Shown here: in pieces, positions 36,750-37,724 of the stretch
Layout of the letters: every line of letters starts with the position of its first letter
Numbering within the stretch: the stretch's first letter is position 1
Assembly: GCA_038064415.1 (NCBI GenBank)
Contig: JBBTTD010000001.1
Span: 13,738-77,737, forward strand
Origin: Patescibacteria group bacterium
Lineage (GTDB): Bacteria > Patescibacteriota > Minisyncoccia > Phycocordibacterales > PALSA-1337
Reading direction: 5' to 3'
Length of the DNA stretch: 64,000 nucleotides
The notes under the pieces: model-generated
Database searches by the model: none
Told to the model about the DNA's origin: nothing
The model's input: only the letters and a program-made list of their open reading frames with translations
Translations under genes and position numbers: made by a program

Positions 36750-37724
36750 ATGCGCAAGATAATTATTAAAGAAGGCCCCCTTGTCTTTCTTCGGAATGTC
36801 TTGTCTATGGAAATCATCGCCGCCCTATTCTTTTTTGGCTTGTCATTTATAAGTAATTATGGCCAATTGTACCAAAATTGGGGTTTTTCTGATTACATCA
36901 GATTTGACCTTTTTGAAATATTTATCTTTTCTGTCTTTCAGTTAGTATATATCTCACTTTTATTTTTTGATTGGTATTTTACCAACTATGAAATTAACGG
37001 AAAGGAGATAATCAAAAAATCAGGTTTACTATTTCGCCGTCGTAAAGCTGTAAGTTTGGCTGATGTAGCTTCAGTAGAAATAAACCAGTCGCCGATAAGT
37101 CGGATGATGTCTCATGCCACCATCATTCTTGAACACGCCAATGGTCATATGACAAAAATCAGAAATGTCTCTAATTTTGATGAATATATTTACCTAATCA
37201 AGAGTATGGTTCAAGAAGCTTCTGGACGGACCTTGACACAAGATCCGAAAGTTTTATTGGAAAAGGGCGAAGGATTTTTTATTGAATTTAAACAGACGCT
37301 TCGTTATGACGCGCGCAAAGGTGAAATTAGCAGGGAATTAGAGAAAATGGTTCTCAAAACGATTGTTGCCTTTCTGAACGCAGAAGGAGGTACTCTACTG
37401 ATTGGTGTAAATGATGATGCTGAAATTGTTGGTCTAGATAACGATTACAAAACACTGACCAAAAAAGATCGTGATGGGTTTGAGAATCATATGACTATGT
37501 TAGTAAAAACTCTGATTGGTTTGTCATTCACAAAATATGTCACGGTGCGGTTTGATTCAATTGACGGTAAAGATATTTGCATTGTGATAGTTAAAGAAGG
37601 TCACAAACCGGCGTATCTACACAATGGTGATAAAAAAGAAGACTTCTTTGTGCGAGTAGGGAACTCAACGCAACCTTTTTCTATGAGTGAGGCGGAGGAG
37701 TATATCAAGACGCATTGGAAATAA
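36750..37724 (+). CDS. Membrane bPH (YdbT/DUF304-like) domain fused to a Schlafen/AlbA_2 (PF04326-like) putative nucleic-acid-binding domain
   Basis: Two TM helices and a bacterial PH-like segment, then [12 protein letters not shown] ... [29 protein letters not shown], the diagnostic AlbA_2/SLFN core. Confidence 0.5.
   Translation: [324 protein letters not shown]

Follow-up and report, generated by a model that had tools for sequence, protein, structure and literature searches.

The gene described here lies in a window of 64,000 nucleotides (nt) from a contig of a Patescibacteria group bacterium. By “the window” we mean this whole stretch, and coordinates are positions within it unless another locus is named. 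The gene occupies 36750..37724 on the forward strand and is open throughout from an ATG start, encoding a protein of 324 amino acids (aa) with two transmembrane (TM) helices, a bacterial pleckstrin homology (bPH) domain, and a Schlafen (SLFN) domain; we call it the bPH-SLFN gene. Its start codon is taken to be correct because the N-terminus matches homologues from residue 1 on. The upstream neighbor is rpoC (32896..36564, +), which ends 185 nt before the gene. Downstream, the typA/bipA GTPase gene (37782..39686, −) runs convergently, and beyond it in the window lie a pilB-like (39739..40875) and then a pilC-like gene (40910..41965). The first-pass annotation, made from the letters of the window, had therefore sited the gene correctly between rpoC and typA. 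We found no paralogue of the protein within the window. The parts of the gene are as follows.

36750..37724, + strand: complete gene for the 2TM-bPH-Schlafen protein (324 aa plus stop), from the open reading frame (ORF) list, with both Pfam families above gathering cut-offs

36750..36776, + strand: residues 1-9, short basic N-terminal segment (MRKIIIKEG), predicted to be cytoplasmic; beta-strand at 4-7 by DSSP on the structure model

36777..36851, + strand: TM helix 1, residues 10-34, with the acidic intramembrane residue E21; helix in the model and hydropathy segments in homologues

36903..36980, + strand: TM helix 2, residues 52-77; helix in the model, with Q64, W75 at the membrane-cytoplasm interface

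36981..37223, + strand: bacterial PH domain (bPH_2), residues ~78-158, a beta-sandwich plus C-terminal helix 143-158; PF03703 and Foldseek PH matches

37266..37721, + strand: Schlafen/AlbA_2 nuclease-type domain, residues 173-324, at the extreme C-terminus; PF04326, Foldseek, and profile matches to SLFNs

37269..37292, + strand: putative catalytic motif E174-GFFI-E179-F-K181, of the form Ex4(E/D)xK, from alignment to SLFN14/11/13

37365..37415, + strand: Schlafen box and Gly/hydrophobic core, V206-A-F-L-N210 ... G213-G-T-L-L-I-G219-V-N-D222, from alignment to SLFN14

Pfam, structure prediction, and Foldseek agree on the domain calls of the first-pass annotation, which had proposed two TM helices and a bPH_2 domain followed by an AlbA_2/Schlafen core. 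The two Pfam families that it had named for checking both score well above their cut-offs. PF04326 (SLFN_AlbA_2) matches residues 175-310 with 74.1 bits (cut-off 25.3, E 1.7e-20) and spans profile positions 2-117 of 118, and PF03703 (bPH_2) matches residues 75-145 with 54.4 bits (cut-off 22, E 1.6e-14). NCBIfam returned nothing meaningful for the protein. A ColabFold monomer model was built from an alignment of 67 full-length sequences sharing 25-80% identity (alignment A2). Its mean predicted local distance difference test score (pLDDT) is 90.6, with no segment below 50; in blocks of 10 residues, pLDDT is 92-97 over residues 171-290 and 86-93 over 291-324. In the model, a short N-terminal strand and helices 10-34 and 52-77 are followed by a beta-sandwich that ends in a helix (79-158), then by a linker and an alpha+beta domain (173-324).

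Searched against the PDB with Foldseek, the two halves of the protein match different folds. The C-terminal half matches DIP2311 (3lmm), the SAMD9 AlbA_2 domain (7ksp/9o0d), SLFN13 (5yd0), SLFN5 (7cux), and 2kyy, with a probability of 1.00 to 3lmm, 7ksp, 9o0d, 5yd0_C, and 7cux. For the N-terminal half, the matches are PH domains, the bacterial PH protein 3dcx among them. This half is a bona fide bPH_2 (YdbS/YdbT-like) module, and the model gives the C-terminal domain the predicted two-layer alpha+beta fold of an SLFN C-lobe. There is also a weak, sub-threshold likeness between residues 153-242 (37206-37475) and the T4 translational repressor RegA (PF01818, E 0.0024; PDB 1reg, E 0.003). This likeness arises with the single sequence and with the profile alike, and is probably spurious.

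We find that the residues expected of a Schlafen nuclease are all present. The A2 profile matches the catalytic C-lobe of SLFN14 (E 3.7e-8), SLFN11 (2e-6), and SLFN13 (9e-6). E174-x4-E179-x-K181 aligns to tEsthvEFK in SLFN14, pEsqsiEFK in SLFN11, and sEsasiEFK in SLFN13, and the stretch VAFLN210...D222 aligns to SAFANtqGGyvliGvdD of SLFN14, the box being AFLN here rather than SAFAN. D222 is the third acidic residue, equivalent to D252 of hSLFN11. One deposited SLFN14 entry has Ala at the position equivalent to E179; by our reading this entry is an inactivating mutant.

Conservation was counted over 149 SLFN modules of the subfamily, irrespective of architecture. E174, K181, N210, G214, G219, D232, and D242 are each conserved in 149/149 modules, E179 in 147/149, and D222 in 146/149. 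The putative catalytic residues, whose presence the first-pass annotation had left to be checked, are therefore near-invariant across the subfamily, and the signature is invariant over the 67 full-length members as well. The Ex4(E/D)xK motif is needed for tRNA cleavage, according to the main text of a survey of prokaryotic Schlafen (pSlfn) nucleases (PMC13056530), and in the CRISPR-associated protein CbCash the equivalent E17/D22/K24 triad works with Mg2+ (PMC13462974). A preprint on SLFN-carrying prokaryotic Argonautes (SLFN-pAgo) defines the signature as Ex4(D/E)xK, a SAFAN box, a Gly/hydrophobic core, and the equivalent of hSLFN11 D252 (bioRxiv 10.64898/2026.05.29.728809). By every sequence and fold criterion tested, the bPH-SLFN protein belongs to the pSlfn superfamily.

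The membrane hairpin is similarly conserved. Two TM segments are seen by hydropathy in nearly all homologues. Among the 67 full-length members, W75 is invariant (67/67) and P10 is kept in 60. Position 21, within the membrane, holds E in 50 members, Q in 9, and D in 4, and position 64 of TM helix 2 holds Q in 43 members and E in 13. The hairpin is rich in K/R at both ends, and its loop (35-51) is charge-poor. Because this charge distribution follows the positive-inside rule, we infer an N-in/C-in topology, which would place both the bPH and the SLFN domain in the cytoplasm. The predicted topology agrees with that of bPH families with N-terminal TM helices (DUF304-type), for which a cytoplasmic PH domain and oligomerization have been predicted (PMC2817789).

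The bPH-SLFN family is abundant in sequence databases. A search of 5.8 billion proteins (E <= 1e-3, clustered at 90% identity) recovered at least 1060 homologue clusters. The best 120 of these clusters share 63-81% identity with the protein, are almost all 324-325 aa long, and all carry PF03703 plus PF04326; where a source name is given among these 120, it is Patescibacteria or Candidatus Taylorbacteria. Searching with a profile of the divergent members alone adds Nealsonbacteria, Paceibacterota, and Parcubacteria. An exhaustive search of representatives at 50% identity returned 6867 matches at E <= 1e-3, of which 309 had E <= 1e-30. The complete 2TM-bPH-SLFN architecture is found in about 70 of the 150 best representatives, at identities as low as 26%, and the remainder share the SLFN module alone, at 40-50% identity. 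The architecture had been called unusual in the first-pass annotation. This holds for the literature, where a search for bPH together with Schlafen found no relevant paper and hence no description of the combination, but not for the databases, in which the family is common.

In 146 of 148 representatives, the SLFN module sits at the extreme C-terminus. Its Pfam partners include HsdR (type I restriction), GmrSD_N/DUF262, TPR, CBS, the response-regulator receiver (REC), and periplasmic SBP_bac_3 plus TM; a TIR partner is a sub-threshold Pfam match (26.0 bits, cut-off 28). In the TPR fusion, phmmer also places a bPH-like stretch ahead of the SLFN module. Partners of the fusions are thus of the signal-transduction type as well as the defense type, and the SLFN module behaves as a portable output or effector domain that is coupled to inputs of both kinds. 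This portable C-terminal output fits a sensor-plus-effector logic. Among individual proteins (P numbers), P0237, P0222, P0212, P0348, and P0350 have an SLFN module, 40-48% identical to the one described here, as the C-terminal output of receiver, CBS-pair, and SBP_bac_3-TM proteins.

Scanning viral contigs in IMG/VR, we detected GmrSD-SLFN and other large SLFN fusions and no bPH-SLFN protein. Two of these contigs, classed as viral, encode GmrSD-like proteins (DUF262...HNH-type) that end in an SLFN module of the same subfamily (L017 3291-5531 and L018 3144-5450; L numbers denote loci), and their architecture resembles that of an experimentally validated DUF262-Slfn defense protein. A further protein, P0340 (L031/L032 5001-5729), is a 242-aa 2TM-SLFN protein without bPH that is labeled Candidatus Yanofskybacteria and lies among genes for MtrB/PioB, NrfD, and a multiheme cytochrome. 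This setting suggests an organism outside the candidate phyla radiation (CPR) or a mis-binned contig, and P0340 was left out of the family evidence.

The genomic neighborhood was compared across 25 related loci. Fifteen of these, with homologues 54-82% identical to the protein, are from GTDB species genomes, and all 15 are Patescibacteria metagenome-assembled genomes save one 5.7-kb contig labeled Nitrospira. We find typA next to the homologue or within ~3 kb of it in 13 of the 15 genome loci and in L029 (14 of 25 loci overall). Its usual orientation is convergent with the homologue, which is also the arrangement in the window; L009 and L011 have it divergent. An upstream rpoC is limited to L001-L003, L005, and L006, which are the closest relatives (L004 being too short to show this), and in L006, from Taylorbacteria, rpoC is followed directly by the bPH-SLFN gene, as in the window.

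The commonest immediate neighbor of the homologues is truB (PF01509). It adjoins the homologue on the same strand in eight loci (L001, L003, L005, L007, L008, L010, L013, and L029), with gaps of 15-139 nt. In L001, L003, L005, L007, L010, and L013 it lies upstream with gaps of 15-70 nt, and in L008 it lies downstream with a 21-nt gap, so that the adjacency survives an inverted order. In L002 and L015, truB is one gene off, bringing its presence to 10 of 25 loci. There is no truB in the whole 64-kb window. The order in L029, HisRS-TruB-[bPH-SLFN]-BipA-PilB-PilC, looks ancestral.

Divergent members have other neighbors of the same general kind: Pth, L31, RF-1, S2, and EF-Ts; in other loci a class I aminoacyl-tRNA synthetase with SMC, DnaX, sigma-70, or LepA with RF-1; and in one further locus FtsH, UDG, SmpB, IF3, L35, and L20. 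Across 134 neighbor ORFs, the commonest Pfam families are TruB (9), T2SSE (7), HisRS (6), T2SSF (5), DsbA/thioredoxin (5), and RNase H-like exonuclease (5). PADLOC run on the same 134 ORFs gave generic ABC-ATPase, RecD/helicase, and candidate-family look-alikes, and no recognizable defense system was found within ~5-6 kb in the 25 loci. For the bPH-SLFN protein itself, PADLOC gave one sub-threshold match (13.5 bits, E 0.0026), to a pAgo model, which stays within the SLFN region. The first-pass annotation had associated the Schlafen fold with anti-phage or abortive-infection contexts and had named homologues consistently embedded in housekeeping operons as an observation that would count against its reading. 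Such operons are what we observe, with TruB, TypA/BipA, HisRS, PilB/PilC, Pth, RF-1, and others as neighbors. As a side observation, L008 has an ORF for a MazF/PemK-type toxin (PF02452; 7821-8201) between the SLFN-truB pair and typA, and several loci have small variable ORFs in the spacer between the gene and typA; this spacer is a mildly variable spot.

The gene appears to have descended with its host chromosomes. Across 13 genomes, distances between the proteins co-vary with TypA distances (Mantel r 0.60, reached in 8 of 5000 permutations). Compared with the closest orthologues, the proportion of synonymous differences (pS) is 0.77-0.86, which is saturated, and that of nonsynonymous differences (pN) is 0.11-0.17; we give pS and pN instead of a dN/dS ratio since dS is saturated. 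Because of the co-variation with TypA, the saturated pS with low pN, and the lack of bPH-SLFN on the viral contigs scanned, we conclude that the bPH-SLFN gene is a vertically inherited resident of Parcubacteria chromosomes under strong purifying selection.

This conclusion bears on the proposal in the first-pass annotation that the gene is a single-gene insertion flanked by repeat elements. Two hairpins flank the gene.

36567..36690, no strand: long hairpin with 38-nt arms and a 48-nt loop in the spacer between rpoC and the gene; inverted repeat I1, 97% complementary

37756..37792, no strand: hairpin with 18-nt arms between the convergent gene and typA; inverted repeat I6

The left hairpin folds as RNA with −74.9 kcal/mol (z −13.6). 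It is present as a single copy in the window, and no copy was found in the 15 related loci, in IMG/VR viral contigs, or in JGI metagenome contigs. Rfam gave only sub-threshold miRNA-precursor look-alikes (generic long hairpins) over 36400-37950. The left hairpin lies right after the rpoC stop codon, where the relative L003 has truB, and is possibly a structure of the rpoC 3' end that is no part of the protein system. The right hairpin is likely a bidirectional terminator-type structure. Its core, GCGAGGTCSGACC, is found elsewhere only in a similar hairpin right after rpoB (32283-32325). The two flanking hairpins have no sequence in common, and each is self-complementary. Because they are unrelated to each other, they delimit no element, and the simplest reading of both is a 3'-end or terminator-type structure.

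A recent insertion of a foreign gene between rpoC and typA, by a mobile element ending in the flanking repeats, is accordingly very improbable. The 38-nt-arm inverted repeat directly upstream and the hairpin downstream would fit such an event, as would the slightly lower GC content of the 5' half of the gene (0.35 against ~0.42). Yet these structures form no terminal repeat pair, no direct repeats are found at the gene, and no integrase, transposase, or other recombinase is found nearby. The GC content is 0.35-0.38 across the gene and ~0.40-0.45 in its flanks, without a clear break in composition, and the lower value in the 5' half coincides with the part that encodes the TM helices, with its many F/I/L/Y codons. 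Moreover, relatives that lack these hairpins also have the gene by typA, and the Taylorbacteria locus L006 likewise has rpoC and then the gene. A repeat-bounded mobile cassette is thus ruled out by the unrelated hairpins together with the typA-adjacent gene in relatives. What had been described as flanking repeat elements are two unrelated hairpins, and the supposed single-gene insertion is a gene syntenic with typA in the 13 genome loci and L029.

Two further observations concern the surroundings of the gene. The hairpin after rpoB, with its GCGAGGTCSGACC core, precedes an ORF of 180 aa (32344..32886, +) that lies between rpoB (29009..32278) and rpoC and has an N-terminal hydrophobic segment. 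Pfam gave no match for this ORF, and GC falls to 0.31-0.34 there. In the relatives L003 and L006, rpoB and rpoC are spaced by just ~46-85 nt; because the two genes are nearly contiguous there, the ORF looks like an insertion inside the rpoBC operon. A palindromic motif, GCGAGGTC(C/G)GACC, occurs in the hairpins after rpoB (32283-32325) and after the bPH-SLFN gene (37756-37792), with 4 matches against 0.01 expected, and may be a genome-specific element resembling a repetitive extragenic palindrome (REP) or a terminator. In addition, the typA ORF in the mechanical list opens at a TTG ~34 codons upstream of the MEIRNIAIIAHVDHGKTT N-terminus conserved in all orthologues. The true typA start is probably an internal ATG, in which case the typA-pilB intergenic region is longer.

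We consider the bPH-SLFN protein to be, with better than even probability, a membrane-tethered pSlfn endoribonuclease that is gated by the membrane and is conserved and vertically inherited in Parcubacteria/Paceibacteria-type Patescibacteria; this reading leans on analogy with characterized Schlafen nucleases. Because the housekeeping context is conserved, we propose that the protein is a resident, core-like device of the lineage for stress or translation control, rather than a mobile defense cassette, although protection against phage could still follow from its output.

By analogy with CbCash, SLFN-pAgo, and SLFN11, a single SLFN lobe would be inactive alone, and its pairing with another would form a bilobal RNA-binding cleft. 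A dimer or tetramer is needed to rebuild the bilobal nuclease cleft in SLFN-pAgo (bioRxiv 10.64898/2026.05.29.728809), and in CbCash oligomerization gates activity, as an inactive dodecamer gives way to an active filament (PMC13462974). The 2TM-bPH module would serve as scaffold and sensor, oligomerizing at the inner face of the membrane, setting the geometry of the SLFN domains, and holding the lobes inactive. Bacterial PH rings have been solved for PF08000 and hypothesized for DUF304/PF03703 (PMC2817789). A membrane-borne change would then rearrange the assembly; candidates are envelope or membrane perturbation, a change in ions or potential, and phage attack. More speculatively, the conserved intramembrane carboxylate might point to an ion or a change in potential as the signal, or else to a lipid-phase cue. 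The aligned SLFN active sites would cleave tRNA or other structured RNA in a Mg2+/Mn2+-dependent manner, and translation would be shut down. Such a shut-off might serve phage exclusion, dormancy, a stress response, or RNA quality control.

Several points weigh against this proposal. The nuclease activity, substrate, and trigger of the family are all inferred, and identity to characterized SLFN nucleases is low (15-22%; the match to CbCash has an E of 1.1). The closest SLFN modules are also fused to proteins with a nuclease of their own (HsdR and GmrSD), and in these fusions the SLFN module might be a nucleic-acid sensor, not an effector. The solved bPH rings belong to PF08000 and not to bPH_2, PF03703 (PMC2817789). 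Finally, these small genomes are so packed with translation genes that having some of them as neighbors is weak functional evidence, and conservation in Parcubacteria is judged from the recovered loci.

The protein might instead be a dedicated single-gene anti-phage protein acting by abortive infection, in which the bPH domain would sense membrane events of phage (injection, holins, or depolarization) and the SLFN domain would deplete tRNA, leading to death or arrest. We regard this as possible but doubtful. The main text of the survey reports pSlfn nucleases as experimentally validated phage-defense effectors with 69.6% of their genes near defense genes (PMC13056530), and both Cash and SLFN-pAgo act through tRNA cleavage (PMC13462974; bioRxiv 10.64898/2026.05.29.728809). 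The partners of the closest SLFN modules (40-50% identity) include HsdR, GmrSD_N/DUF262, and, below threshold, TIR. GmrSD-SLFN fusions occur on viral/prophage contigs, and DUF262-Slfn is a validated defense protein in the main text of that survey (PMC13056530). The weak PADLOC match to an SLFN-carrying pAgo model (E 0.0026) and the small variable ORFs between the gene and typA in some relatives, MazF toxin included, also lend themselves to such a role. The same survey text, however, gives 30.4% of pSlfn genes as not defense-associated and allows them non-immune roles, and the bPH-SLFN gene has the genomic profile of this fraction. The 25 loci are without a recognizable defense system within ~5-6 kb, synteny with typA and truB is held across 54-82% identity, and protein distances co-vary with those of TypA. 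Strong purifying selection and invariant length are unlike the fast turnover and patchiness of defense genes, and no full-length bPH-SLFN was found on the viral contigs scanned.

It is unlikely that the protein is a non-catalytic, nucleic-acid-binding membrane tether that anchors the nucleoid, ribosomes, or RNA, or that handles DNA taken up by a type IV pilus. Database names such as “putative DNA binding domain-containing protein” and “RNA-binding domain-containing protein” would suit a tether, and AlbA_2 domains such as the SAMD9 DNA-binding domain (the 7ksp match) bind DNA. Among mammalian SLFNs, several are without catalytic residues and act other than as nucleases (PMC13462974), and the window and 7 related loci have pilB/pilC (T2SSE/T2SSF) at a distance of a few kb. 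Against this, inactive Schlafens have lost their signature residues (PMC13462974), whereas E174, E179, K181, and D222 are near-invariant over the 149 modules, which would be unexpected for a pure binder. Between the pilus genes and the bPH-SLFN gene lies typA, encoded on the other strand, and divergent members no longer show the link.

The recurrent truB neighbor raises a more specific version of the non-immune reading. TruB is the tRNA pseudouridine-55 synthase. CbCash, a structurally characterized prokaryotic Schlafen, docks the tRNA T-loop and cuts it 5' of U55, a residue that it requires (PMC13462974). Because truB adjacency outlasts rearrangement (L008) and CbCash cuts at this position, we raise the idea of a housekeeping Schlafen that would act as a membrane-gated tRNA T-loop endonuclease functionally coupled to TruB. 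TruB and bPH-SLFN could then form a modification-dependent circuit for tRNA surveillance or shut-off, with pseudouridine-55 status deciding which tRNAs are cut (self, unmodified, or foreign). This coupling is a long shot that draws on analogy and on gene order, in small genomes densely packed with genes, and truB is missing from the window. If true, it would be the first defined physiological non-defense role for a bacterial Schlafen nuclease.

Schlafen nucleases were shown to be widespread bacterial antiviral tRNases only in 2025-2026, and the domains fused to them are thought to be sensors. The bPH-SLFN family is a clean and abundant example of the ~30% of pSlfn genes that are not near defense genes. 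It combines an intact active site with a membrane-embedded bPH partner that has conserved intramembrane polar residues, in an ultra-small and largely uncultured lineage with few known defense or stress systems. If active, the protein would show that a Schlafen nuclease can be gated by the membrane and would provide Parcubacteria with a built-in switch for shutting off translation. It thus offers a test case for physiological roles of bacterial Schlafens beyond immunity, and for bPH_2 as an oligomerization or sensor scaffold.

A close comparison is with the pSlfn nucleases DUF262-Slfn (EcoSlfn7) and Ig-like-Slfn (RorSlfn5). As presented in the main text of the survey, these share PF04326 and Ex4(E/D)xK with the bPH-SLFN protein and likewise carry a single SLFN lobe on the same chain as a module presumed to sense or regulate (PMC13056530), and the nearest SLFN modules of the bPH-SLFN subfamily include GmrSD_N/DUF262 fusions. 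The survey text lists 55 domain compositions and notes that the 30.4% not near defense genes may have non-immune functions (PMC13056530). Unlike the surveyed proteins, bPH-SLFN carries its SLFN domain C-terminally behind 2TM and bPH_2, lies outside defense islands, and is vertically conserved in Parcubacteria. We found no reference to Patescibacteria, or to a transmembrane, PH, or bPH partner, in the CbCash paper (PMC13462974), the SLFN-pAgo preprint, or the survey's main text (PMC13056530).

CbCash (PMC13462974; PDB 9ylu) is, like bPH-SLFN, a single-lobe SLFN with the E-x4-(D/E)-x-K triad. Unlike bPH-SLFN, it has a Csx15 Rossmann-like sensor that binds cA4, and its genes lie in type III CRISPR loci. 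No CRISPR-associated family is among the neighbor-family matches listed for the related loci, and no cas-specific or array search of the window was made. Because its N-terminal half is 2TM plus bPH, with no Csx15 domain, and because those listed matches include no CRISPR-associated family, bPH-SLFN is not a Cash protein; nor is it an SLFN-pAgo or a defense-island gene. The C-lobe of mammalian SLFN11/13/14 and the AlbA_2 tRNase domain of SAMD9 align with it in fold and in catalytic residues (E-x4-E-F-K, a SAFAN-like box, and GG..GvdD). Mammalian SLFNs, however, are soluble, have two lobes (N and C) per chain plus helicase or other domains, and share 15-22% identity with it. By analogy with SLFN-pAgo, the one-lobed bPH-SLFN protein would have to pair intermolecularly.

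On the membrane side, YdbS/YdbT-type bPH_2 proteins (PF03703, formerly DUF304) likewise place a cytoplasmic bacterial PH domain behind two N-terminal TM helices, and homologues of bPH-SLFN are named “membrane protein YdbS with pleckstrin-like domain” by JGI. YdbS/YdbT-type proteins have been linked to the sigmaW regulon and to bacteriocin transport or immunity. They are without a nuclease domain, and bPH-SLFN adds what would be an enzymatic output domain. RNase Y and membrane-associated RNase E are housekeeping endoribonucleases held at the cytoplasmic side of the membrane and encoded by conserved chromosomal genes. Their likeness to bPH-SLFN is a functional analogy only; they share neither its fold nor its presumed catalytic mechanism. 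Fusions of Schlafen nucleases to varied sensors are by now established; what appears to be new here is a membrane-anchored, bPH-coupled pSlfn in an atypical, conserved housekeeping context.

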